This document shows, piece after piece, positions 3,359 through 61,573 of a stretch of 64,000 nucleotides of DNA; position 1 is the first letter of the stretch, and every line of letters starts with the position of its first letter. A program made the position numbers and the translations under genes. The notes beneath the pieces are model-generated. The model was not told where the DNA came from, ran no database searches, and worked only from the letters and a program-made list of their open reading frames with translations. Origin of the DNA: Escherichia phage vB_EcoM_Lh1B; the sequence record OK428535.1; one strand, given 5' to 3'.

Positions 3359-3397
3359 TCCCTCTTACCTTCGGGTAAGAGGGGATTTCCTTTTTTA
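3359..3397 (+). terminator. intrinsic terminator
   Basis: Stem CCTCTTACC / GGTAAGAGG with TTCG loop followed by T-tract, directly after stop of 2875..3354. Confidence 0.6.
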
Positions 3398-3413: not shown

Positions 3414-3426
3414 TGTGATATATAAT
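3414..3426 (+). promoter_or_regulatory. candidate extended -10-like promoter element
   Basis: TGTGATATATAAT about 17 nt upstream of the 3443 start, downstream of a terminator; contains N calls nearby. Confidence 0.3.
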
Positions 3427-3442
3427 CTCNTGGNGAGTTGAA

Positions 3443-6421: not shown

Positions 6422-6439
6422 GAGATAGATATTATCTAC
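6422..6439 (+). promoter_or_regulatory. candidate phage promoter motif (AT-rich TATATTAC-like family)
   Basis: GAGATAGATATTATCTAC about 33 nt upstream of 6472 start; related motifs at 14951..14978 and 46607..46634. Confidence 0.35.
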
Positions 6440-9102: not shown

Positions 9103-9137
9103 ACGGACACTCTTCGGGGTGTCCGTAGTTTTATTTT
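9103..9137 (+). terminator. intrinsic terminator
   Basis: Stem ACGGACAC / GTGTCCGT with TTCG-containing loop, then T-tract. Confidence 0.6.
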
Positions 9138-10092: not shown

Positions 10093-10141
10093 TAAAGCCT
10101 ACCCACTCCCGTAAGGGGAGTGGGTACTGCTTACTTNNTNT
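10093..10141. terminator. bidirectional intrinsic terminator
   Basis: Stem TACCCACTCCC / GGGAGTGGGTA with GTAAG loop, A-run before and T-run after; near-copy of the 271..318 terminator. Confidence 0.6.
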
Positions 10142-12804: not shown

Positions 12805-12807
12805 GCA

Positions 12808-12834
12808 TGGGCGGGGCAACCCGCCTGTTTTTTC
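12808..12834 (+). terminator. intrinsic terminator
   Basis: Stem GGCGGG / CCCGCC with GCAA loop followed by TGTTTTTT. Confidence 0.5.
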
Positions 12835-14950: not shown

Positions 14951-14978
14951 AAAAGAACTCAGACAGATATTATCTATC
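14951..14978 (+). promoter_or_regulatory. candidate phage promoter motif (AT-rich family)
   Basis: AAAAGAACTCAGACAGATATTATCTATC, near-identical in its first half to 46607..46634. Confidence 0.35.
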
Positions 14979-19218: not shown

Positions 19219-19255
19219 TGCCCTCTCCTTCGGGAGAGGGTATCTTTATTTTTTA
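19219..19255 (+). terminator. intrinsic terminator
   Basis: Stem CCCTCTCC / GGAGAGGG with TTCG loop followed by T-tract. Confidence 0.6.
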
Positions 19256-25646: not shown

Positions 25647-25701
25647 AAAATAAAAGCAAACGAGTACCCCGTAAGGGGTACTCGCGTTACTTATTTTTTT
25701 T
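25647..25701. terminator. bidirectional intrinsic terminator
   Basis: Stem GAGTACCCC / GGGGTACTC with GTAA loop, A-run before and T-run after, at a convergent junction. Confidence 0.6.
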
Positions 25702-28499: not shown

Positions 28500-28547
28500 G
28501 TAAAACCTCTCTGTAAGATGATTAGGGGGTGTTGCCACCCCCTACGA

Positions 28548-35522: not shown

Positions 35523-35698
35523 CGCCGACTTCCTGGCAACATTCAGGGTACTGAGTATCGGGCTTCGTTTTTTCTCGTCTTTGGGACGGGGNGGTTCNCC
35601 NAAANCNTCCCANTCGTCGANTNTATCTAAATCNATATCATCNAAACCNTCTTTNCCTCTTTTTGCCNTAANNTTTNTTCCAATTNAGGAGNTTAAAA

Positions 35699-37312
35699 AT
35701 GACAAAGCTAAAATGGGTTNACTTTTACTTGTTAAACNNCAACAAGTCCCTGGTGTCGCATTTAAAACCAGTTACAACAACAGACACCTTTCAGGGACTG
35801 ACGAAAAACTTTCACCCTGAAGGACTGTATTCAACCGAAATTTTTGGCCTCACAGGGAGCGAAGCACGAGACTCAACGTTCTCGTACATTGATATCAAAC
35901 TGGATATCATTTCGCCGACCGTTTGTTTGGCATTGTTCCAGCTGAAACAGCTGTACGAAGAAATCTGTTCCGGGAAGCGATTCGCTATCTGGAATGAGAA
36001 AGAAAAAGATTTCGAGCCGGCTCTGCCCAGTGATAAAGGTGCAGACACCGGCTTCAACTTCTTCCTACGCTACTACGAACAACTGACACCGGGACGCAAC
36101 GAATCGATGCGTCGCGACGAGACAGTCGATTTCTTCAATAAGTTCCGTCCGGTCAGTCTCAGCCGCTATGTGCTGGTTCTGCCTGCGGGATTACGTGATT
36201 TGGTCATTCGTCAGGATGGCCGCGACCAAGAAGAAGAGATTGGCGGACTCTACCGTCGTCTGATTTCTCTGGCGCGTGCAATCCCCGACCGCAGTACGCG
36301 AACGGAACTGACTGACCCGGTTCGCTGGAAGCTCCAACAAACCTTTAATGATATCTGGATGTACTTCTTCAACATCCAGGATGGTAAAGGTGGTTTTGCA
36401 CGTCGTAAAGTGACGTCACGTAAGTTAATGAACGGTACGCGTAACGTACTGTCTTCATTCTCAACCGGTTCCAAGGTCATGGGTCGCGAAGATGCGATTC
36501 GTCCAACGGATACCCGTATCGGTTTGTACCAAACCCTGAAGGCATTACTGCCTGTGGCTCAATACCACATCCGTGAACGTTACCTCAGTAACATCCGGGC
36601 AGGGGACGGCAACTTATACGGCGTTAACACCAAAACACTCAAGCGTGAGTTCCTGGAAGTCTCCGGGCGGGTGTATGACCTTTTCACTACCGACGATGGC
36701 ATCGAAACACTCATCAACAGAATGGAAGCGCGCGAGCTTCGACATAAACCGCTGATGATTGATCCGGACCATTACGTGGCATTAATCTACCAGGACAAAC
36801 GCAGCTTCAAAATCTTTTACGATATTGAAGACCTGCCGGAAGGACGTGACCGCAAGCTTGTCCGCGGACTGAGCTTAGCAGAACTCCTCTATTTGTCAGG
36901 TTACGATATTTGGAATGACTACTTCTCGTTCATCACGCGTTATCCGGTTACGGGACGCGGTTCGACTTACTCCTCGACCATAAGATTGGAGACCACCACC
37001 TCTTCCCTCTATTTGCATGAACTGGAAGACGATTGGGNCACGTTAAAAGANAAGGGNGCAATTNGNTTCCCTGACCGTACCGTGAAAACNTTTGTGGAAT
37101 CCATGGCACCACATCCANCCCNATTAGGGGGNTTGGGNGGNGACNACGANGGNGACACCGGCNCANCAAANAGCCCGATGTCAACCGAAGCGCTCGNGGA
37201 AAATCGGAAGTGGGTCAGTTCGAAAAACTACTGGTTTGCAACAGACGGCAGTTTCAAAATCAATCCGGTTAACAACGTGATTAAAAGAACGACTGCTGCG
37301 CTGTTGAAATGA
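35699..37312 (+). CDS. RNA polymerase beta-prime-like subunit, N-terminal-half homologue
   Basis: 537 aa; ordered blocks VLVLPAGLRDLV, GGLYRRLI, GKGGFARRKVTSRKLMNGTRNVL, ITRYPVTGRGS, K.AI.FP and GGD-x-[D/E]-GDTG (37142..37156) match beta-prime lid/rudder/DPBB/catalytic-loop blocks; AGGAG RBS. Confidence 0.6.
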   Translation: MTKLKWVXFYLLNXNKSLVSHLKPVTTTDTFQGLTKNFHPEGLYSTEIFGLTGSEARDSTFSYIDIKLDIISPTVCLALFQLKQLYEEICSGKRFAIWNEKEKDFEPALPSDKGADTGFNFFLRYYEQLTPGRNESMRRDETVDFFNKFRPVSLSRYVLVLPAGLRDLVIRQDGRDQEEEIGGLYRRLISLARAIPDRSTRTELTDPVRWKLQQTFNDIWMYFFNIQDGKGGFARRKVTSRKLMNGTRNVLSSFSTGSKVMGREDAIRPTDTRIGLYQTLKALLPVAQYHIRERYLSNIRAGDGNLYGVNTKTLKREFLEVSGRVYDLFTTDDGIETLINRMEARELRHKPLMIDPDHYVALIYQDKRSFKIFYDIEDLPEGRDRKLVRGLSLAELLYLSGYDIWNDYFSFITRYPVTGRGSTYSSTIRLETTTSSLYLHELEDDWXTLKXKXAIXFPDRTVKXFVESMAPHPXXLGXLXXDXXXDTGXXXSPMSTEALXENRKWVSSKNYWFATDGSFKINPVNNVIKRTTAALLK

Positions 37313-41536: not shown

Positions 41537-41583
41537 TGTAGGGCGGGTCGCTCCCGCCCGGTAAATAAACTCCGGAGTTAATA

Positions 41584-41877
41584 ATGGGAATTTTAGATAC
41601 GCTCAAGCAGCAGCATGGGATTCCGGTGGGTCGTAATAGCACGAATCCGGAAACGGAAGGTTATTCCCCACAGCAACGCATGAACTTTGTTGTTCTGGGC
41701 AATGCGGTTGAATTGGCCACCGAAATTATTCACGGACTGCTGAAGGGCAGCAATGGCCTGTCTGACCGCATGGGCGATCAGCGTTTGCTGAAACGAGACA
41801 TCGCTGATATGGTGGGTGCGCGTATTACTGGTCGCATCCAGGATTCTATCAGCACCAAAAACGGGGGTCAGGCATGA
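41584..41877 (+). CDS. hypothetical protein
   Basis: 97-aa ORF. Confidence 0.45.
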   Translation: MGILDTLKQQHGIPVGRNSTNPETEGYSPQQRMNFVVLGNAVELATEIIHGLLKGSNGLSDRMGDQRLLKRDIADMVGARITGRIQDSISTKNGGQA

Positions 41878-44087: not shown

Positions 44088-44149
44088 CTGAGGTAGGGTT
44101 ATTGTACGTCCCCAATAACCCGCTTCGGTAATAACAACTGGGGAAACCA

Positions 44150-44953
44150 ATGGAAAACTTGTCACTACGTTATAACTGCGTGGCACTCGCTGGGGTCAAT
44201 AAAGGGGCAACGCTAAAGAAAGATGCGGACGGATATTACTACGTCCTGTTAGGTGCATTGAATATTTTCAACTCTGAGAATATTTACTACGCCTATAACG
44301 AGTCAAAACATGTCTTCGAGCGCTCTAACGTTTTCATGCGTAAAGTTTTGGCGGGGAATCTCTTCGGTGAAGAAGACCATCCGCAATACGAACAAGGCAT
44401 GAGCGAAGCCCAGTGGATCGAACGTAACGAATGGATCGAAACGCGTAACGTGTGTATGCACATTCGCGAAGTAGAAGTGAAGCCGACCGACCAGATGTGT
44501 AACGGTCTGCCGGTGATGGAAATTTGGGGTTGGATTAAACCTAACCGTGAACGTGGTCCGCTTCTGGCGGAAGCACTAGAGAACCCACATCAGAACGTGT
44601 GTTTCTCACTGCGTGCTATCGTTCGTGAAGGTCGTCTGGGTACGACAATCGTACGCCGCATCGATAAACTGGTCACCTTTGACTGGGTTATTGAAGATGG
44701 TCTGCAAATCTGTAACAAATACTCTGCGATTCAACGCGGTAGTAAAGTGGCACAGGAATCCACTCGCACTTACGTCGACCGTCCTATTAGTCGTCAGGTG
44801 CTGGAAGACATCCTGTACAATCCGACAACGACCAGCGCTGTTGCCACTGAGTCCCGTCGTGGCGCTCTCCAGCAACTCGCGCAGGAATACCTGCAGCTGG
44901 CTCCGAAAGTGTCCAATCTGCGGGTAATGGGCATGGGTGTAAGGAGCTGGTAA
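44150..44953 (+). CDS. hypothetical protein
   Basis: 267-aa ORF. Confidence 0.55.
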   Translation: MENLSLRYNCVALAGVNKGATLKKDADGYYYVLLGALNIFNSENIYYAYNESKHVFERSNVFMRKVLAGNLFGEEDHPQYEQGMSEAQWIERNEWIETRNVCMHIREVEVKPTDQMCNGLPVMEIWGWIKPNRERGPLLAEALENPHQNVCFSLRAIVREGRLGTTIVRRIDKLVTFDWVIEDGLQICNKYSAIQRGSKVAQESTRTYVDRPISRQVLEDILYNPTTTSAVATESRRGALQQLAQEYLQLAPKVSNLRVMGMGVRSW

Positions 44954-46543: not shown

Positions 46544-46552
46544 GCTCTACTA

Positions 46553-46596
46553 GGCTCATCCTATCTTCGGATACGGGTGAGCCTTTTTATTTTATT
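46553..46596 (+). terminator. intrinsic terminator
   Basis: Long hairpin GGCTCATCC-TATC-TTCG-GATA-C-GGGTGAGCC followed by TTTTTATTTTATT. Confidence 0.6.
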
Positions 46597-46606
46597 AATT
46601 GCATTC

Positions 46607-46634
46607 AAAAAGAACTGAGATATATATTACTTAG
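46607..46634 (+). promoter_or_regulatory. candidate phage promoter motif containing TATATTAC
   Basis: AAAAAGAACTGAGATATATATTACTTAGG between a terminator and the next gene. Confidence 0.4.
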
Positions 46635-48956: not shown

Positions 48957-48964
48957 TAAACAAT

Positions 48965-48998
48965 GGGGTGGTCTTATGACTGCCCTATTTTTTTTTTG
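48965..48998 (+). terminator. probable intrinsic terminator
   Basis: Imperfect hairpin with two wobble pairs followed by a 10-nt T-run. Confidence 0.45.
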
Positions 48999-49555: not shown

Positions 49556-49603
49556 AACGTACCTCTCTCCAAATGGAGAGAGGTAACGCTTGTTTTTTTT
49601 TTG
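49556..49603. terminator. bidirectional intrinsic terminator
   Basis: Perfect 10-bp stem ACCTCTCTCC / GGAGAGAGGT with AAAT loop, A-run before and 11-nt T-run after. Confidence 0.65.
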
Positions 49604-50484: not shown

Positions 50485-52530
50485 TTAGCTCTCCCGACGG
50501 TAAACTTTGATAGTGGTGTTGAACTGGGTGAGCAGCACACCGCCTTCAGCGATCAGGTCCAGCGTCACAGAGTAACCATTGGATTTATCGTCTGCAGTGA
50601 AGTACGCCTTCGGAGTGACGACAGCAACGTTATCGAGACGGCCTTCCAGACGTTCGATAATTTTGTTCTCAATCATCTTCGCACGTTCATCATCCGTCAT
50701 GGCCGCTTCGCCAGACATGTCCGCCCATACACGGTCGGAAACACGATAGACGTAGGTCATCATGAAGTTGAACAGGGCGTTGTTCAGTACAGAACGATCT
50801 TCGCTGTAGATTGACTGAATCGCCGGAATGAACAAGCGATAGTAGTCGTAGGAACGGGCAGTGATCAGCGACACATCCCAGTCAGACGCATACACTTCGT
50901 TGCCTTTCCACGGCATACTCAGGTCAGTCAGATCTTCGATAATCGTCAGTTCGCCACGGCTGAAACGATAAGCCGGTTTTGCACGACCGTCGCCTGCACC
51001 CAGGTACTTCGAGAAGAAGTTCGCCAGGGAGTAGTTCATCGGAACAGGCTTCTTGTAGGAAGAGTTCTTGATGAACGCCGATTGGCCGGTGACCATACCA
51101 CGTGCAGCCGGAGTGCCGTAATAGGCAGATTCCGGTACCGCTGTGATCAATTCGATCAGGGCGATTTTTGNACTTTCTTCTGTCTGCTCATCGTTACGGC
51201 CTTGGCTGTAAACGTGAGTCGCCAGCGTCAAGAAGGTGTTACGTGAACGACCGATGAAGTTCACGAGCGCAGCTTTAGTATCGAAGCTAAAGCCAGAGTC
51301 CCAGAAACAACCCAGCGAGTATTTCAGCTCGTTGTCGTAACGGACTTTACCGCCATCCGGGAACAGCAGCATTTCACGGCGAACGAGTTCGTCGTAAACG
51401 TCGTTGTTCATGGTACCATCGCTACCACCTTGCAGGTAGTGGATGTTGGATGCGGAGAACACAACTTTACCGGTTTCAGTAGCCGGGTTTACCTGAAGAC
51501 CATCGTAAGGCTGGCCCAGTAAATCATAGCCGCCAAAGATGTCAACCATATACGGGTCAGCAGGCGCATCAGTTGTGATAGCGGCCTGAGCCAAGCCCAG
51601 TACAGTTTCCAGGTTCTCGCGATACAGATAGAACTGCTCGAAAGGACCATAATCTGGCAGCTCGCCAATGTCAGGCATCGTCTGACGATATGCATCCGCA
51701 ACAACAACTTCGAAGTCGAGTTGCGTTCTCATCGGCTGATAGTATGCATCGGGCTTAAAGCTAAAATTGATGCTACTCATGCCAGTGAGAGTTTTCCACA
51801 CTACCGGAGAAGTCACGCCTGCCAGGGTTTCGAACCATTGCAGGGTGTAAACACGACCACCGACTTCATTTTGATAGGAGGAGGTCAGAGCCGGGCTGGA
51901 TTTCTCGCTGAGTGGGATCAGTTTGAAACCGAAACCGTTGACGTCAGCACCCGCATACGGGCCTGCGATATCGAACAACGGATACAGCTTCGATTTCGTG
52001 CCGCCTTCGCCAGTCATCGTCCCCTCGATAACCACACCTGCGCCGATGGCCGGGGTAGTTTCGTCGATTACGACAGAACGGAAGACGATTACCAAACCGT
52101 CAACTTGTTCTTTGATCTTGGGCTTGCCCGAGTTGTCGTACTGAACGATCCCGTTGCTGTCGCGTTCGTAGGACGGAACTTTCGTTTCGAGTACGTCGGC
52201 GAATACGCGAACACTTGCGGTTTTCGCATCTTCAGGGATCAAGCGCTGATACATACACTCGTTTGCGTTAGCGTTGAACATCGCCTGATAGGGCGTGTTG
52301 AACGTCGCGTAGGGGCCTCGCAAGTCAAAGACATTGCGACCAAGCAGAGACAGTGCATTATCCCCGGTTAACGGGAACGCCTCGTTGTCTACCCCGCGCG
52401 CGGCAAAGGTGAAGATCAGCGGCTTATGAATTGCGTCACCCGTAGGGGTACGCNCAAGCTCGGGGACAGAGTTATCCTGCCAACCTTGCTTGTTATTCAA
52501 CGGCGCGCCGTTTCGTGGAATAAAAGTCAT
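50485..52530 (-). CDS. major structural protein, possibly tail sheath-like (or capsid)
   Basis: 681-aa ORF, no enzyme motifs, followed by a ~290-aa partner as in sheath/tube pairs; sheath versus capsid not resolved. Confidence 0.6.
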   Translation of the reverse strand: MTFIPRNGAPLNNKQGWQDNSVPELXRTPTGDAIHKPLIFTFAARGVDNEAFPLTGDNALSLLGRNVFDLRGPYATFNTPYQAMFNANANECMYQRLIPEDAKTASVRVFADVLETKVPSYERDSNGIVQYDNSGKPKIKEQVDGLVIVFRSVVIDETTPAIGAGVVIEGTMTGEGGTKSKLYPLFDIAGPYAGADVNGFGFKLIPLSEKSSPALTSSYQNEVGGRVYTLQWFETLAGVTSPVVWKTLTGMSSINFSFKPDAYYQPMRTQLDFEVVVADAYRQTMPDIGELPDYGPFEQFYLYRENLETVLGLAQAAITTDAPADPYMVDIFGGYDLLGQPYDGLQVNPATETGKVVFSASNIHYLQGGSDGTMNNDVYDELVRREMLLFPDGGKVRYDNELKYSLGCFWDSGFSFDTKAALVNFIGRSRNTFLTLATHVYSQGRNDEQTEESXKIALIELITAVPESAYYGTPAARGMVTGQSAFIKNSSYKKPVPMNYSLANFFSKYLGAGDGRAKPAYRFSRGELTIIEDLTDLSMPWKGNEVYASDWDVSLITARSYDYYRLFIPAIQSIYSEDRSVLNNALFNFMMTYVYRVSDRVWADMSGEAAMTDDERAKMIENKIIERLEGRLDNVAVVTPKAYFTADDKSNGYSVTLDLIAEGGVLLTQFNTTIKVYRRES

Positions 52531-52587
52531 GGAACGTCTCCATATATTCGTCTTAAAGACCTGATGGTCATACTAAGGATCATACTC

Positions 52588-53493
52588 ATGGCACTCGAAA
52601 ACGCTTACAGCGGTAATCCCTTTAATGCACTTGACCTTACTCGCACCAAGGCAGACCTGGAATTAGCCCGTAAACTTAACCAAACTGTCGCACAGTCCGA
52701 TGAAGTTCATTACGTTGTTGAGACCGCTGATGTAAAACCGTTTCCTTTGCCGATTGTTATCGGCGACGACGTTTATGTATACGCAGCCACGTTTACCACG
52801 CTGGATAAGACCAACGAGCTAAAAATACGAAACCCAGTCGAACACGCATTGCGTCTCGACCAGGCTCGCTGGGAATTGGTGTGGAAACGGAGTAATGGTA
52901 AGCTTGCTGCACTGATGGCACAGATGCCCTACCACCATGAGATTTTCAGCAAATGGGTGTCGGATGCGATTACCCACACGTTTGCACTTGCTCCATATCA
53001 AAGTGGGCAAATCAAAGCGTTGGCTGCATTGTTCTCTGTGGGACAGTTCTATAATCACGTCGAAGATGATGTGAAAGCTTTACGTTTGCAGCAGATGCTG
53101 GAGCAACAATTAGGCTTACCTGCGGAACTGTTTGAATCAGTGACAGGCCACACAGAATATCTTTTCCCGCGTAATATCGCAGAATTCGTCGAAATGGTGC
53201 AGGCTGCAGATATCACTCCGCGGGTGCGTGACCTGAGCATTCTGTCTCTGCAGCAGATGTTGAATACCAGCTTCTTCGGGGTGAGTTATGAAAAACAACT
53301 CGCTACTAGCGCCATCGAATATCCGCCTAGTCTCTTCGTTATGATTAAGGCTTGTCTGGATAATAACATGTTTAACCGCAGTCGGTTAGGTGGGATTGTG
53401 AAGAAGTCAGACACCGCTAAGAAACGCGATAAGTTTGAATTCACCTACAACCTTCTGATGAATCAAAACACCAAACCACTGAACATCAAGTAA
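52588..53493 (+). CDS. hypothetical protein
   Basis: In-frame ATG at 52588 with AAGGA RBS; the ORF-track start at 52426 would overlap the divergent gene. Confidence 0.5.
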   Translation: MALENAYSGNPFNALDLTRTKADLELARKLNQTVAQSDEVHYVVETADVKPFPLPIVIGDDVYVYAATFTTLDKTNELKIRNPVEHALRLDQARWELVWKRSNGKLAALMAQMPYHHEIFSKWVSDAITHTFALAPYQSGQIKALAALFSVGQFYNHVEDDVKALRLQQMLEQQLGLPAELFESVTGHTEYLFPRNIAEFVEMVQAADITPRVRDLSILSLQQMLNTSFFGVSYEKQLATSAIEYPPSLFVMIKACLDNNMFNRSRLGGIVKKSDTAKKRDKFEFTYNLLMNQNTKPLNIK

Positions 53494-53503
53494 GAGGCCC
53501 ACT

Positions 53504-56017
53504 ATGGAGAACTGGCTGGTCGCTCACGCCGTTAAAAATGCGTGGCAGCGTCCGTACCTCGATGGGGTGTTGAACATTGCGCCTTTTCGATTAACTGAAA
53601 AGACCGGAGCGATCGGGTTTTTCAAGCACGGGCGTAATCCGATTCCTTNACNGGGCGNGGGGTGGTGGNACGCGTTTGTAATTGACAAGCTCCACCTCAA
53701 CTACGGCAACTTGAGTATCCCTCCTGAGCGCTGGAAGAAACTTACTACGTGTGTAAATAACTTCCATGCGTGGATGCAGGTGTACAACGAAGATGGGACA
53801 ATTATCCCGTCGAACTCTGTGTATTTCTGGCGGACACTCTCTGGTCAGATTTACATGGCGATTCCGCAAACGGAACGCTACAAGTGGTTAGACGACACGC
53901 CGTGTTATCTACGCATTTATGCTGGTAATGATGGCGGCGAAAACGCTCCTGTTGTTAAACCGACGTTCATCGAACCGTATAATCCGCCGAACCCACAACA
54001 GATCCAGATCGTCTTAGACCGTTATAATCTGTTGAAAGGCCAGAAAATCGGCTATGTCGATTTCTGGGTAAACGGAAAGATGATTGCTGATCCTAAGCCC
54101 GCGGATATCAAAGCATGGGATGATGTTGAAATTCGTGTCGACGGCCGCATTCGTCGTGTAATTGAATACCGTTGTGGGGATTTGCAAACGTTCTACTCAA
54201 CGCTTGACCAAACACGAAAATACCTGCTGCACATTCCAAAAGGGGATGGCATTTGGATTTTCAACAACGACTGTGAAATTCAGTTGTTGTGGAAAGGCGA
54301 AGGGCGTTACTACCACCGCCACCGTCATCAGGCCGTGCGTCAATTGACGTGGAACGATATATCGATTCCGTCGATGCGGATTTCGAAATACCGCACCGCT
54401 TTCACTAACCCAATGAATGATATCGACGAACTAACGATTCGTTTATTGATACGTGACGATTTCCTTGACCTGAAGCCGTTGTATAACTCCACCCACACAC
54501 ATGACCTCTATCGTCTTAGTGACGAGCAGATCATCGGTGCGATGGTGGGGGCAAACTCCAACGTACCAGAGTGGACCGCAGCAGCGCTCGAGGAATCGGC
54601 AGCGAATCGGTTAGCGGCAGCCAAACTCCGGAACATCACACGCGATCTCTGCACTGATGCGTACGGCTACAATGCCGCCGCACGTTACAGTGCCGACACT
54701 CCACAGCGTCTGGAACTTACATCCGGTGGCTATCGCGGTACTTTGCCCGACTTACTGGCAACGCTGTCAACTGTATACGAGTACGATGCCGATGGGTTGC
54801 TGTTAGAACATCACCGTAATGCAGGCTACGATGTTTACATCCCTCGCAATCCAGAAGCACGAATCATCGAGGCTATTGCGGGTGAAGTCTCGGATGCGGT
54901 GAAGATTGTTGACAACGCTCCTGACTTTGAAATTGAGCCAGGTTCAAACGTTGGGTTGTGGATTCGAATGGTCATCGGGGAAGTTCCAACCAACGACTAC
55001 TACAAAGCCGAGGAAGGAACGGATTATACTCGCGACGGAAATAAAATCACCTGGACCGTAGATCGGACACGACGTCACCCGACAGTGATTTACGACGACT
55101 TCCATCTGTTCTTCGAAGTGGATGTTAAGGTGTCGGAAGGTCAGATACGTATTCCGATTGTAGCACGCAACCAAGACGGGCAGCAGCGCACGCTGTGGCT
55201 ACCGATGGAAACGGTTGAAGTGTGGTTGAACAACCACCCACTGGTGCACGGTATCGATTACCACACCCGCTGGCCGGAAATTGTGGNGGTTTGTAAAGCG
55301 TGGATGGCGGACGGGGATACAAATAAAGTCTCAGTGCGTTGTCGTGGCGTGACCGGTGAACTCCGTATTCCTAAACATGGTTTCGTGTCAAGCGGACTGC
55401 TGTCTAATAACAGCCAGTTTGATTGCCGTGACGACAAAGTGATTCGTGTCGTGGGTGGCGGCTCACTGCTATTGCGTGACGAAGTCGTGTTCCGTGAAGA
55501 CAACACTGTAGGTGTTGACATCGTGCAAGACGGGTTCCCATACTCGGTCGACGATCCGACTATTCCGTTGCGGACGCTGGTAAGCGGCGATACGTACGAC
55601 TTGCGCGACACNNCCCGTNNTTTNGNCACNCNCGTCGAGGCTTACCTGTCTAACTGGTTCCCGACACCTCCGCCGGTTAACCCGGTACCGTTGCCGTATC
55701 TGTATCACCTCTATTCGCCAACCCTGAACAAAATCTTGTGGGACTACTTGCAAGGTATTCTGATTCTGCGGGAAGACGATCCGGAGTATCGTATCTCGAC
55801 ATCACAGCTGGATGACATCATGGAGCGTTATAAAGACCTCCTGCCGTTTGACCCGGCCTATATCGGTTACGATAAAGCGTTTGTGAAACTGCATCCGCAT
55901 GTGAAGTACGAAACGGTAGAAATCAACGAACTTGGCTTTGCCTTCTTAGACCGCGTCAATGAACGTTATCTGAATGGCGAAGTGCAGCTTAATCAGTATC
56001 TGATAATCAAGGGTTAA
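53504..56017 (+). CDS. hypothetical large protein, likely structural
   Basis: 837-aa ORF with AAGAGG RBS. Confidence 0.6.
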   Translation: MENWLVAHAVKNAWQRPYLDGVLNIAPFRLTEKTGAIGFFKHGRNPIPXXGXGWWXAFVIDKLHLNYGNLSIPPERWKKLTTCVNNFHAWMQVYNEDGTIIPSNSVYFWRTLSGQIYMAIPQTERYKWLDDTPCYLRIYAGNDGGENAPVVKPTFIEPYNPPNPQQIQIVLDRYNLLKGQKIGYVDFWVNGKMIADPKPADIKAWDDVEIRVDGRIRRVIEYRCGDLQTFYSTLDQTRKYLLHIPKGDGIWIFNNDCEIQLLWKGEGRYYHRHRHQAVRQLTWNDISIPSMRISKYRTAFTNPMNDIDELTIRLLIRDDFLDLKPLYNSTHTHDLYRLSDEQIIGAMVGANSNVPEWTAAALEESAANRLAAAKLRNITRDLCTDAYGYNAAARYSADTPQRLELTSGGYRGTLPDLLATLSTVYEYDADGLLLEHHRNAGYDVYIPRNPEARIIEAIAGEVSDAVKIVDNAPDFEIEPGSNVGLWIRMVIGEVPTNDYYKAEEGTDYTRDGNKITWTVDRTRRHPTVIYDDFHLFFEVDVKVSEGQIRIPIVARNQDGQQRTLWLPMETVEVWLNNHPLVHGIDYHTRWPEIVXVCKAWMADGDTNKVSVRCRGVTGELRIPKHGFVSSGLLSNNSQFDCRDDKVIRVVGGGSLLLRDEVVFREDNTVGVDIVQDGFPYSVDDPTIPLRTLVSGDTYDLRDXXRXXXXXVEAYLSNWFPTPPPVNPVPLPYLYHLYSPTLNKILWDYLQGILILREDDPEYRISTSQLDDIMERYKDLLPFDPAYIGYDKAFVKLHPHVKYETVEINELGFAFLDRVNERYLNGEVQLNQYLIIKG

Positions 56018-56019
56018 TC

Positions 56020-57663
56020 ATGGCGAAGATTGCGTCCAAATTAATCGACAAGGATCGCGGGTTCGAAGTCTGGGACCCGAGTGAATTGTACGAACCAAAC
56101 AAACCAACAGGTTACGTACCTAACCCACGTGACCTTATCGTGAACGACATGACCTCCGGCTTTGACCGCGTGGTTAGCGTAAACTATTCGGTACCGTCGT
56201 GGGAAACAGAACCGTTCGGTGGCGTTGGTGTGGCAAACCAAGACGGGCGTCTTAATGGTCACTACCCACTACGCTCTGACAGATATCGCGTCTACGTGGA
56301 CAGCACCAAACTTCCACCGACGATGGTTATCGATGATGCCGTCACTTTCAACGGTCCCGATATCGACGGTGTGCGTATCCTGCGTGGGTCATCTGTAAAC
56401 GATGATGCGGAAATCCTGTCTGGTTATTACAAAGACGGGGTTCTGAAAAAGAACTATCTGCCGGTGCAGACTATCAGTGCGGCTGACGCAGAAACTGTGG
56501 TGAAACAAGCGATTCCTGGGAGCTGTCTGGCTGAAGTCAGTAACGGTGAAGAGTGTACTTTCCTGGTTTACTCTGACACCGGTAACGTTGTTCAGATCGC
56601 CCACGGTCACATCATCAAGACCAATCTGGTGATGGCGCAAGAGACTCCGTCTCGCACTGTGCTAGGTATTAAACTGGTTTCACCGTTCCTGGTAGACGAC
56701 AATGGTACTACGCTGACGCTGCCGATTAACATCCCGCTGGAATCTATTCCGCTGTGGTGTGACATCCAGTACAGCGACGGAACCAAACGCCTACCTATCG
56801 ATGGTTCGCGTGTGAAGTTTAACGGTCTGCGTAACTCTGGTGCACATGACACGTTTTACATCGCTTCAAATGCCGGTAATGAGTTACCTTGCCAGTTAAG
56901 CTATCAGTTGGCTCGCGGTGAAACCTACGGTGGTACTGACATTGTTAAAGATACAATTGTCAAAGACTACACCGCTGTAACCGAAACAGTCGATGGTGCT
57001 TATTCCATGAAGCTGTTTGTGGTTCCGCGTTGGTTGGATGCGAACCGTGGTTATCGTCTGTCGTTCCTGCTGTACAACCTGACACGCGGCCAAGTCTACG
57101 ACGCGACCGCAAACATCCAGTACACCACAGGGACTACATTCGACCCACTATTGATGGGTGTGAAACAGCGTCTGAATGTGCAGGTGGATATCAGCAAAGT
57201 AAATCCACAATTCCGCGCTTTCATCCAGGCGCAGTCTTTCGCCATCACGTTAGTGAACCCAGGTAACGAGTTGAATACCAACTTCCTTATCGAATACCTG
57301 CCTGATGGGCTGGTCTACGGTAATGAAATTTGGGCGGAGTTCAAATACTCTAACGTCAACTACTCCACGCTGAACCTTCGTTGTGGTTGTGCCTCTAAAG
57401 CCGAGTGGCTTAAAGCGTTGTACGAGCCGATTTATCCGCTCTACGATCGTCGTAATGAATCTGAGGCTCCCGAGCCTACACACTTTGAGGTGCATGTCGG
57501 TGGTAAGGTTTACACCCACAGCATCGATGAGTGGTTAAATGAGCAAACGGTAGATTATCGTATCGCTCTGGACGATTCGTTAGTTATTCGCTGGATTCGT
57601 CGCACTCCTACGGATACGCTTAACCTCGCGGCTACGCCAATGCTGGCGCACCACATCGAGTAA
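56020..57663 (+). CDS. hypothetical protein, likely structural
   Basis: 547-aa ORF directly upstream of terminase large subunit. Confidence 0.6.
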   Translation: MAKIASKLIDKDRGFEVWDPSELYEPNKPTGYVPNPRDLIVNDMTSGFDRVVSVNYSVPSWETEPFGGVGVANQDGRLNGHYPLRSDRYRVYVDSTKLPPTMVIDDAVTFNGPDIDGVRILRGSSVNDDAEILSGYYKDGVLKKNYLPVQTISAADAETVVKQAIPGSCLAEVSNGEECTFLVYSDTGNVVQIAHGHIIKTNLVMAQETPSRTVLGIKLVSPFLVDDNGTTLTLPINIPLESIPLWCDIQYSDGTKRLPIDGSRVKFNGLRNSGAHDTFYIASNAGNELPCQLSYQLARGETYGGTDIVKDTIVKDYTAVTETVDGAYSMKLFVVPRWLDANRGYRLSFLLYNLTRGQVYDATANIQYTTGTTFDPLLMGVKQRLNVQVDISKVNPQFRAFIQAQSFAITLVNPGNELNTNFLIEYLPDGLVYGNEIWAEFKYSNVNYSTLNLRCGCASKAEWLKALYEPIYPLYDRRNESEAPEPTHFEVHVGGKVYTHSIDEWLNEQTVDYRIALDDSLVIRWIRRTPTDTLNLAATPMLAHHIE

Positions 57664-57671
57664 CAAACCTT

Positions 57672-57695
57672 CCTCCACCCCTTCGGGGGTGGAGG
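57672..57695 (+). promoter_or_regulatory. GC-rich stem-loop occluding the terL Shine-Dalgarno
   Basis: Perfect 10-bp stem CCTCCACCCC / GGGGTGGAGG with TTCG loop, no T-tract; right arm contains the GGAGG 12 nt before the terL ATG. Confidence 0.4.
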
Positions 57696-57707
57696 TATGG
57701 AGATTGT

Positions 57708-59819
57708 ATGATACTGCGAAAAAACGATTGGCGACACTATCCGGGGGCGATTGTTGACGACGTCACACCAAACGTGCACTTCCTTCAATTCGCCACAACA
57801 CTACAAGGATTAGGTGTCCAGCATTGGTACGTCCACCTGGCATTACACAATCCCGAACTCCGTGGTGTTGATCCGTTTAGCCCGGATTTAACACTCGAAC
57901 AAAAAGCGATGATTGTTACGGAGTGTGCGGAAAACCCATGGTACTTCTTCCGTGAGTGTGTCCGGGTCCCTGCGGATGGTGTAAAGAACGGGATGCCGTT
58001 TCGTCTAGACCGCGGTAACTTTTCGATGTATTGGATTTTCTTCAACAACATCGACGCCGCTATCGAGTTTCTCCGTCAGCATGGTAAGACTGTCGGGATG
58101 TCCGCATTGCTATTGTGGCTGATGCGCTTCCTGGAGAACTCACGTACGATTCTTATCACGAAGGGTCCTGCCCTGCGTGAAGAAACTATCAACAAAATGA
58201 AACAACTGCGTAACGCGTTACCGGATTATCTCTGGCCTCATCACCCGGACGATCCTGATAACCGTGAGACATTTGCATGTCTAGCGNAGGGTAACAAACT
58301 TATCACCGGCATCGGTCAAAACGATAAGGAAGCTGCGAACGGGGTAGGCCGTGGACTCACAGCCGGACGCCTGTTCTCGGATGAAGGACCGTTTACCAAC
58401 AACATCCACCATATCCTCCCTGCTGCACTAGCATCGGGTACCGCGGCGCGTCGTATTAACGAAGCCGAAGGTGTTCCATACGGCAACGTCTTCGCAACAA
58501 CGCCTGGGGATTTGGCGACAGAAGAAGGCGAGTACATGTACAGCCTGATGACGTCGGGGATTTCGTGGGATGAACGGTATATCGACATTCCGACTCGTGC
58601 ACAACTGATTGACATGATTCGCAAAGGCTCTACTGCGAAGATTCCACGTATCATGTTCTACGTGAAATACAACCACCGCCAACTCGGTACCACGGACGAA
58701 GAACTCGCAGATATGATTGCGAACGCCCCAGGTACACCAGACCAAATCCGCCGTGACTTCGGTGGTGAATGGACAACCGGTGGTTACAACAAACCGTTCT
58801 CAGGCGATGATGCAAGACGTATGAACGCCTCGCGTATTCGGGCAGCACAGAAAATTATCTCTGCTTCCAACTACGTAACGGATTGGTATTACACCGAAGA
58901 ACAGATGCTGGTTAAAATGCAAGACCGCCACATCATCGGTTTGGATACTTCCGAAGCCGTGGGACGTGACGCCATTGCCATGTCAATCGTCAACTCTGTC
59001 ACTGCCGAATATGCCGGCAAGCTCACCGTGAACGAAACAAACGTCATCGGGTTTGCGATTCACCTAGCAGACTTCATGATCGAATATCCGAACACGGTAC
59101 TCATTCTGGAACGACGGTCTACCGGCTCCTCGGTAGCAGATGCCATCATACTGCAGCTGCAATCTAAGGTTCGCGATTTGCATCGTCGTTTGTACGTGAA
59201 AGTGACCCAGGATTACTCAAGGAACGATGAACTTTACAAAGAGTTCCATCGTGGCCCTGTGGGCAGTCCAGAGCGCTTCTGGGACAAATTCCGTAAATAC
59301 ATCGGTTTCTCAACCGACCAGGATAAACGCCGTAAGTTGTATGGTGAAGTATTTACCACGGCGTTGCGTCTTTCTGCGGACTTACTGCGGTCAGGCGAAT
59401 TGATCGACCAAATCCTCGGTCTCGTCGAACGAAACGGGCGCATAGACCACCGTGCATCCGGTCACGATGACCTGGTAATATCCTGGCTCCTGGCAATGTG
59501 GTTACTTCTGTTCGGCAACAACTTAGGCCACTACGGTATAAGTAACAGCCGACTGATGATGCGCAACCGCAATATGCTCGGGGGCACGGCAGGTGAATTC
59601 GATGAAGAGGCTGCAGTCGAGGAAGAAGAAAAGCAACAACAACTGATGGGGCAAATTGAAACGATGATTAGGCAGAGTCAAGTTGTAGCCGACCCGGTAC
59701 AACAGCTCATGTACAAGAATCGTATTCAAGCGCTCGTCTCTCAACTCAACACTGACGTTCGTAACGTCGCATCGATGGAAAGCTTGAAAGAGCTAATCCA
59801 ACGACAGAGGATGAAGTGA
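57708..59819 (+). CDS. terminase large subunit
   Basis: 703 aa; deviant Walker A LRQHGKT (as I recall, T4 gp17 has SRQLGKT), C-terminal RNase H-like nuclease blocks IIGLDTSEAVGRDAIAMSIV and GHDDLVISWLLA. Confidence 0.8.
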   Translation: MILRKNDWRHYPGAIVDDVTPNVHFLQFATTLQGLGVQHWYVHLALHNPELRGVDPFSPDLTLEQKAMIVTECAENPWYFFRECVRVPADGVKNGMPFRLDRGNFSMYWIFFNNIDAAIEFLRQHGKTVGMSALLLWLMRFLENSRTILITKGPALREETINKMKQLRNALPDYLWPHHPDDPDNRETFACLAXGNKLITGIGQNDKEAANGVGRGLTAGRLFSDEGPFTNNIHHILPAALASGTAARRINEAEGVPYGNVFATTPGDLATEEGEYMYSLMTSGISWDERYIDIPTRAQLIDMIRKGSTAKIPRIMFYVKYNHRQLGTTDEELADMIANAPGTPDQIRRDFGGEWTTGGYNKPFSGDDARRMNASRIRAAQKIISASNYVTDWYYTEEQMLVKMQDRHIIGLDTSEAVGRDAIAMSIVNSVTAEYAGKLTVNETNVIGFAIHLADFMIEYPNTVLILERRSTGSSVADAIILQLQSKVRDLHRRLYVKVTQDYSRNDELYKEFHRGPVGSPERFWDKFRKYIGFSTDQDKRRKLYGEVFTTALRLSADLLRSGELIDQILGLVERNGRIDHRASGHDDLVISWLLAMWLLLFGNNLGHYGISNSRLMMRNRNMLGGTAGEFDEEAAVEEEEKQQQLMGQIETMIRQSQVVADPVQQLMYKNRIQALVSQLNTDVRNVASMESLKELIQRQRMK

Positions 59820-60058
59820 TGACTCAACTCTACTACGCAATCGTGCTGGTAATGTGGATTTGCCTATACTTTGGCTTACGCCACACCATCGAAGTAATAC
59901 GCATACACGCACAAAGCCACGATGTCTGCACACGCACAATGCGGCTCGGACAGATTATCTGTAGCTTTGGCGTATTGCTTATCGGTGGACTATCAACCGC
60001 GGGGCTACACGTTGTGTATACCCTACATCAAGTTGCCGTATCGGGAGCACTCGCCTGA
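59816..60058 (+). CDS. small two-pass membrane protein
   Basis: 80 aa with two hydrophobic segments; start overlaps terL stop (ATGA). Confidence 0.4.
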   Translation: MMTQLYYAIVLVMWICLYFGLRHTIEVIRIHAQSHDVCTRTMRLGQIICSFGVLLIGGLSTAGLHVVYTLHQVAVSGALA

Positions 60059-60071
60059 ATCAACTTTAACT

Positions 60072-60130
60072 CGAAAAAATACGACGTAGCCACCTCTCCG
60101 AAACTGGAGAGGTGGCATTTTATTTTATTT
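60072..60130. terminator. bidirectional intrinsic terminator
   Basis: 11-bp stem GCCACCTCTCC / GGAGAGGTGGC with GAAACT loop, A-run before and ATTTTATTTTATTT after. Confidence 0.65.
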
Positions 60131-61501: not shown

Positions 61502-61573
61502 GGCACTAAACCTCTAAAAATTTACGGATATATGTTATCATACTGAGAGTATACCTGAAGGAGATTTTACCCA

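Follow-up and report, generated by a model that had tools for sequence, protein, structure and literature searches.

A conserved tail-less, terminator-like stem-loop between a virion protein gene and terL in an SPN3US-like jumbo phage

Bacterial operons contain intercistronic stem-loops that stabilize mRNA, such as the REP elements in malEFG and the hairpins of the puf operon. Hairpins with the extra-stable C(UUCG)G tetraloop were reportedly first noted in the intercistronic regions of phage T4, by Tuerk et al. in 1988. In the jumbo phages phiKZ and 201phi2-1, terminator hairpins have been mapped by ONT-cappable-seq (PMC10914365, PMC11512511), and a terminator motif, BCCYCCCCHWWDGGGRRGGBYTTATKYYGT, has been derived from experiments on phiKZ (PMC10914365, Putzeys et al. 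2024). Classical terminators, with a hairpin followed by a U-tract, account for only 52 of the 132 mapped 3' ends in 201phi2-1 (PMC11512511).

Here, we analysed a stretch of 64,000 nucleotides from Escherichia phage vB_EcoM_Lh1B (OK428535.1), referred to below as the window, and in particular the junction between a virion protein gene and the gene for the large terminase subunit, terL. A 4-kb region around this junction shares 97.8 to 99.8% identity with SPN3US, SPLA1a and the SPFM phages (Seoulvirus), which identifies the window, as judged by sequence, as that of an SPN3US-like jumbo phage of this genus. The window contains 247 single scattered N bases (for example around 35590-35700, 55200-55630 and 10137-10141) that give X residues in several translations, and this pattern points to ambiguous base calls in a consensus, or to masking, and not to biology. 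The junction has the following features, of which the hairpin parts are direct readings of the sequence.

56020-57663, plus strand: gene for a 547-aa protein, annotated as a virion structural protein in SPN3US
57661-57663, plus strand: TAA stop codon of this gene
57672-57695, plus strand: hairpin with a 10-bp perfect stem and a C(UUCG)G loop, without a U-tail
57672-57681, plus strand: 5' arm of the hairpin, CCTCCACCCC (RNA CCUCCACCCC)
57682-57685, plus strand: loop, TTCG (RNA UUCG)
57686-57695, plus strand: 3' arm, GGGGTGGAGG (RNA GGGGUGGAGG)
57691-57695, plus strand: GGAGG within the 3' arm, Shine-Dalgarno (SD)-like, fully paired, 12 nt from the ATG
57696-57699, plus strand: TATG abutting the stem, resembling the phiKZ late-promoter core and unconserved outside SPN3US-type genomes
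57699-57702, plus strand: free GGAG outside the stem, 5 nt upstream of the ATG, likely the functional SD of terL
57708-59819, plus strand: terL, terminase large subunit, 703 aa, with the start as annotated in SPN3US

Between the stop codon and the stem lies an 8-nt spacer (caaacctt), and downstream of 57695 the sequence reads TATGGAGATTGT (tatggagattgt) before the ATG of terL at 57708, leaving a gap of 12 nt between stem and start codon. The initial annotation had described a perfect 10-bp stem with a UUCG loop, lacking a U-tract, between the upstream stop and the terL start, with GGAGG in its 3' arm, and both sequence and folding bear this out. Eight of the ten pairs are G-C, the isolated 24-nt hairpin has a predicted folding energy of -21.6 kcal/mol, and it is retained in both the minimum free energy and the centroid structure when folded within a context of 101 nt. 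Such structures are rare by chance: the window contains 10 perfect stems of at least 10 bp with loops of 3 to 8 nt, compared to a mean of 0.5 and a maximum of 3 in 30 dinucleotide shuffles. No U-run follows the hairpin on its 3' side, where the tail reads UAUGGAGAUUGU. Compared to a canonical intrinsic terminator, the element thus has the GC-rich stem-loop but neither the U-tract nor, apparently, the position at the end of a transcription unit. The stem is also short for an RNase III site of the T7 type, which requires about 20 bp or more of double-stranded RNA and usually has an internal loop, as an extended fold adds only a few weak pairs to the 10 bp, and a scan of 57400-57900 against the covariance models of Rfam 15 gave nothing at E<=1.

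To follow the element through related phages, we extracted the homologous junction from 20 GenBank phages and 22 IMG/VR contigs. A strong hairpin is present at the junction in every member of Seoul-, Erskine-, Machina-, Wellington- and Derbicusvirus examined (about 40 genomes in five genera), and a U-tract is absent from it throughout all five genera. MAFFT and RNAalifold, applied unguided to the 17 alignable sequences, predicted 8 pairs, of which 3 show double-sided changes (for example A-U to U-A and C-G to U-A) and none is broken. When 14 distinct stems were instead anchored on their structure, 97.9% of the cells were paired and 9 of the 10 pairs had double changes, although these 24-mers were picked as the best hairpin per locus and the count is therefore biased towards structure. 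The pairing in this set was matched by none of 500 shuffles, and sliding the partner columns made the signal drop sharply. The 17-sequence unguided alignment is the cleaner test of covariation; it and the separate stem-anchored set were used because an alignment of all 23 junctions misaligned replaced stems and degraded the consensus.

Two genera carry stems of unrelated sequence at the same site, GUACCCCCGGCC-AAAA-GGUCGGGGGUAC in Wellingtonvirus and AGGUCUAGGGG-GCAA-CCCCUAGACCU in Derbicusvirus. Together with the compensatory changes, these replaced stems argue that the structure itself and not its sequence is under selection, so that the selected trait appears to be a stable hairpin. The loops vary as well (UUCG, GAAA, GCAA, AAAA, GGYY and others), which suggests that any stable loop suffices. 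The C(UUCG)G hairpins of T4 share with the hairpin at terL the identical loop and closing pair and the intercistronic phage location, but differ in that the UUCG loop is not conserved among the relatives studied here. Seoul-, Erskine- and Machinavirus all share an unchanged outer CCUCC/GGAGG segment of the stem, and this could hint at a sequence-specific role that our preferred model leaves unexplained.

The more distant relatives indicate which of the two flanking genes the hairpin belongs to. In the phiKZ-like phages PA7, Yaphecito, Xoo-sp14 and RAY, a strong hairpin with a U/UUAU tail begins no more than about 15 nt from the upstream stop codon, while its distance to the ATG of terL ranges from 21 to about 105 nt. 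The intergenic lengths before terL are as follows.

PA7 (phiKZ-like): 139 nt
Yaphecito: 143 nt
Xoo-sp14: 87 nt
RAY: 66 nt

Since the hairpin is anchored to the stop codon while the distance to terL varies, it belongs to the 3' end of the upstream virion protein gene and not to terL. In the genera related to SPN3US, the spacer has collapsed to 42 to 55 nt and the tail of the hairpin is gone. As a separate observation, PA7 (L021, 1356-1494) has two tailed hairpins before terL, and the tail of the second one, TTTATTATGG, contains TATG; in genomes of the phiKZ type, the tail of a terminator and the minimal core of a late promoter may thus share bases.

Within the window, a census of gene 3' ends found about 12 hairpins with a U-rich tail, usually UUUUAUUUU, at operon ends. 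These include the following.

280-305: tailed hairpin
3360-3383: tailed hairpin
9103-9126: tailed hairpin
10100-10126: tailed hairpin at a convergent junction, with U-rich tails on both strands
12807-12828: tailed hairpin
19221-19240: tailed hairpin with arms CCCUCUCC-UUCG-GGAGAGGG
25661-25684: tailed hairpin at a convergent junction, with U-rich tails on both strands
46552-46584: tailed hairpin
48962-48989: tailed hairpin, also called by a hairpin-plus-T scan
49560-49585: tailed hairpin at a convergent junction, with U-rich tails on both strands, also called by the scan
60089-60116: tailed hairpin with the tail AUUUUAUUUU at a convergent junction, with U-rich tails on both strands, also called by the scan

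The same scan left the plus-strand hairpin at terL uncalled. The positions and stems of the tailed hairpins are conserved, with compensatory changes, in SPAsTU, pEa_SNUABM_29, phiEaH2 and Asesino, and their UUUUAUUUU tails resemble, in sequence, the TTAT tail of the phiKZ terminators. Many of them share CUCC-loop-GGAG arms (for example those at 19221, 49560 and 60089). The hairpin part of the phiKZ motif matches 57675-57692 at terL with 3 mismatches, and when up to 3 mismatches are allowed it has 10 matches in the window against 1.9 expected, a number that no shuffle reached. The phiKZ tail YTTATKYYGT has no counterpart at terL, where neither a TTAT nor a U-rich tail is found, although such tails are present at most other terminators of the window. 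From the motif match and the shared arms, the terL hairpin would therefore be the hairpin module of the terminator of this phage family without its tail module, and the GGAGG arm would be a family trait of the terminator hairpins of the phage. The resemblance to the terminators of phiKZ and 201phi2-1 lies in the related phage group, the C/U-rich 5' arm, the G/A-rich 3' arm, the short loop, the position directly after a stop codon and the matching UUUUAUUUU tail of the other terminators in the window; the terL hairpin differs from them by its missing tail, its location inside an operon and its distance of 12 nt from the next start codon.

An AT-rich motif, approximately (G)ATAGATATTATCTA, was also seen upstream of plus-strand genes (3417-3428, 6426-6437, 14964-14975, 46621-46632 and about 61526-61540). 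It is intergenic, often just past a tailed terminator, and resembles the early-promoter type of phiKZ-like virion polymerases; a loose pattern search found 10 motifs of this type against 5.9 expected, which is not significant alone.

The terL hairpin is not the only one in the window that lacks a U-tract. The initial annotation listed similar hairpins near 41541, 44096 and 28523, and by sequence and folding all three are real.

41541-41559, plus strand: hairpin GGGCGGG-UCGCU-CCCGCCC, 7 bp, -14.9 kcal/mol, after the gene for a 1401-aa virion RNAP beta-like protein
44096-44121, plus strand: hairpin of 9 bp, -21 kcal/mol when extended, before the gene at 44150
28523-28544, minus strand: hairpin of 9 bp, -17.3 kcal/mol, 3 nt after the stop codon of a gene of 2385 aa

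All three share a layout in which a stop codon is followed by 3 to 8 nt, a GC-rich hairpin, 12 to 28 nt with its own SD, and an ATG; the hairpin at 28523-28544, for example, is separated by 23 nt from the next ATG (28499), and this start codon comes with a free SD of its own. Four relatives keep the hairpin at 41541-41559 and show compensatory changes in it (GGGCGGG, AGGCGGG, GGGUGGG). The one at 44096-44121 precedes a gene whose counterpart is annotated as a head maturation protease in Erskinevirus; SPAsTU and pEa_SNUABM_29 lack it, and in Erskinevirus another hairpin occupies the site. Judged from these genomes, the hairpin at 44096-44121 would be dispensable in some relatives, which counts against the explanation that we prefer for the terL hairpin. 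Ten nucleotides after the hairpin at 41541-41559, the SD of a small gene at 41584 lies inside a palindrome, CTCCGGAG (41570-41577), that is conserved in four relatives.

The terL hairpin is located in a late operon of five genes.

52588-53493: first gene of the operon
53504-56017: second gene
56020-57663: the virion structural protein gene
57708-59819: terL
59816-60058: an 80-aa hydrophobic ORF with two apparent membrane-spanning segments, overlapping the terL stop codon by ATGA

The junctions measure 10, 2, 44 and -4 nt, so that the 44-nt junction with the hairpin is the only real gap, and the operon probably has its true end, from the sequence, at the tailed terminator 60089-60116. The last ORF is conserved in most relatives as a hypothetical protein of about 79 aa and is unannotated in phiEaH2. 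The 12-nt gap between stem and ATG cannot hold a conventional promoter, and nucleotide conservation across the final 900 nt of the upstream gene showed no block resembling a promoter, with none of unusual conservation in its last 300 nt. There would thus seem to be no promoter either between the hairpin and terL or further upstream, and the transcripts that supply terL must then run through the hairpin. The motif TCATACT, searched for as a late promoter, was not enriched in the window. Late promoters in this phage group are, however, unpredictable (PMC7598289), and a promoter inside the upstream gene or at TATG is therefore possible.

The explanation that we favor, with slightly better than even confidence, is that the element is a tail-less terminator-type stem-loop inside the late operon that lowers the amount of terminase mRNA relative to that of the virion protein mRNA. 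Such an element, with its CCUCC-like 5' arm, GGAGG-like 3' arm and stable tetraloop and without a U/UUAU tail, would act on the amount of mRNA rather than on ribosome access. Lacking a U-tail, it could make the phage RNA polymerase pause or, with low efficiency, stop; it could hold back 3'-to-5' exonucleases and so stabilize the upstream virion protein message; or it could do both. In each case terminase mRNA would be less abundant than the mRNA of the structural genes, while terL would be translated from its own unpaired GGAG. Such a ratio makes biological sense, because the phage needs large amounts of structural proteins but only catalytic amounts of terminase, and a stop without a tail fits the minority of classical 3' ends in 201phi2-1 (PMC11512511). 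The literature that we searched contained no data on transcript 3' ends, 5' ends or half-lives in SPN3US, and we therefore infer attenuation or stabilization by analogy. As in malEFG and puf, a stable U-less hairpin that is conserved as a structure stands just 3' of a cistron whose product is needed in larger amounts (the virion protein) and before one needed in small amounts (the terminase), and it could block 3' exonucleases. Unlike the malEFG elements, the hairpin is not a repeated REP sequence and the transcripts are made by a phage multisubunit polymerase. The element is thus of an ordinary kind and requires no new kind of mechanism.

Among the alternatives, it is unlikely, but not negligibly so, that the hairpin instead serves terL, either as a protective 5' stem after endonucleolytic processing in the A-rich spacer or as a bridge for re-initiation, in which the upstream stop codon would be brought near the SD of terL so that terminating ribosomes re-initiate. 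The distance from stem to ATG is 10 to 12 nt in four genera, even where the stem sequence has been replaced, and the distance of about 6 to 12 nt from stop codon to stem would place the stem just past the footprint of a terminating ribosome. However, the 12-nt segment is homologous sequence, and the constant spacing may therefore reflect inheritance rather than constraint. In Derbicusvirus, moreover, the distance is 20 to 22 nt, and it is the upstream stop that the hairpin keeps to in the distant relatives.

We consider it quite improbable that the hairpin terminates transcription fully without a U-tract and that the adjoining TATG serves the non-virion RNA polymerase as a late promoter of the phiKZ type, with a start at G57699 that would give a 9-nt leader beginning with the SD. 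The phiKZ late promoter core is T(-3)ATG(+1), with all four bases required (PMC7598289; PMC5312081), and TATG at 57696-57699 matches it; the phiKZ terminator tail TTATK can also contain TATG, and TATGGAGA is found before the ATG of the tail-sheath gene as well. On the other hand, SPAsTU and pEa_SNUABM_29 have CATG in place of the TATG at terL, Erskinevirus has GTGA, and Machina- and Wellingtonvirus lack the element. TATGGAG occurs 4 times in the window, which is no enrichment over the 4.6 expected, TATG follows none of the other three U-less hairpins, and the SPN3US polymerase would need to share the promoter specificity of phiKZ. A related proposal, that U-tail-less GC hairpins are stop signals for the non-canonical multisubunit RNA polymerase and that the one at terL is fused to a TATG(+1) late promoter, seems very doubtful to us; if true, a single 28-nt cassette would end the virion protein transcript and start the terminase mRNA with a 9-nt leader from the SD. 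The tail-sheath site is of interest in itself: at 52538-52544 on the minus strand, TATGGAGACGTTCC-ATG precedes the tail-sheath gene (50485-52530, minus strand) and is kept as TTATGGAGACGTTCC in Erskinevirus, which makes it a candidate phiKZ-like TATG(+1) late start with a very short leader beginning at the SD.

The main reading of the initial annotation was that the hairpin sequesters the ribosome-binding site of terL and throttles terminase translation, and we find this highly improbable. The idea has some appeal, as only small amounts of terminase are needed, the GGAGG of the 3' arm is fully paired (with an unpaired probability of 0.002 in the partition function) and the CCUCC/GGAGG part of the stem is the invariant one. 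As in the operators and coupling hairpins that sequester an SD, of which the MS2 replicase and many 5' UTR switches are examples, an SD-like GGAGG is paired with an anti-SD-like CCUCC arm a short way upstream of a start codon. However, the second GGAG at 57699-57702, overlooked in the initial annotation, lies outside the stem and is invariant in 17 of 17 alignable relatives, and it is likely, from its spacing and predicted accessibility, to be the functional SD. The distance from GGAG/GAGG to the start codon across the genes of the window has its mode at 5 to 8 nt (32 of 50 occurrences), and the 12 to 13 nt of the GGAGG in the stem fall in the tail of this distribution, so that this GGAGG, being fully paired as well, is probably not a functional SD. 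The free GGAG has an unpaired probability of 0.47 and the ATG one of 0.88. Among 60 genes ranked by how open the initiation region (-12 to +3) is, terL comes 46th, and its region is therefore more open than that of the median gene. Each of the roughly 40 related junctions has its own SD outside the stem, which beyond the alignable set reads AGGAG, AGGAGG or GGGAGG, and the stems of Wellingtonvirus and Derbicusvirus have no SD-like 3' arm, yet the hairpin and a separate SD are kept. Arms containing GGAG are also found in the terminators at 49560 and 60089, which separate convergent genes and thus have no start codon to control, and in the distant phiKZ-like relatives the hairpin stays at the upstream stop as the distance to terL varies. 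Unlike in the SD-sequestering operators, the functional, properly spaced SD and the ATG are thus outside the stem and an SD within the stem is not a layout kept in the relatives, there is no alternative fold of comparable stability at the junction, and the upstream ribosome halts too early to open the stem. The initial annotation had also suggested a factor-independent stop or a processing site; that part is plausible and close to our preferred explanation, while the sequestration part was not upheld. A four-codon mini-ORF, ATG GAG ATT GTA TGA (57697-57711), has a stop codon that overlaps the ATG of terL (ATGA); it occurs only in Seoulvirus genomes, is not kept in Erskinevirus and is unlikely to be translated, as its ATG is 1 nt from the paired GGAGG.

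We give hardly any credence to a role of the other strand or of the DNA, as a terminator for antisense transcripts that enter terL from downstream or an inverted repeat for packaging, even though a consensus scan flags the minus-strand reading as terminator-like (tail AAGGTTTGTT) and the hairpin adjoins the terminase gene, because this T-rich tail is not conserved in relatives, similar hairpins are found at gene ends across the genome, and the G-U pairs in the stems of Asesino and Wellingtonvirus are compatible with pairing in the plus-strand RNA only.

In conclusion, we find that the hairpin before terL is a clean, covariation-supported example of RNA structure between cistrons in the SPN3US group, and few of the transcription signals of these nucleus-forming-type jumbo phages have been mapped. 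The genome contains two classes of hairpins: about 12 at operon ends carry a UUUUAUUUU tail, and four inside operons have none. If the terL hairpin does act through termination or stabilization, as we favor, this would explain how terminase is kept low relative to the co-transcribed virion proteins, and it would inform on what the polymerases of these phages require of hairpin and tail.
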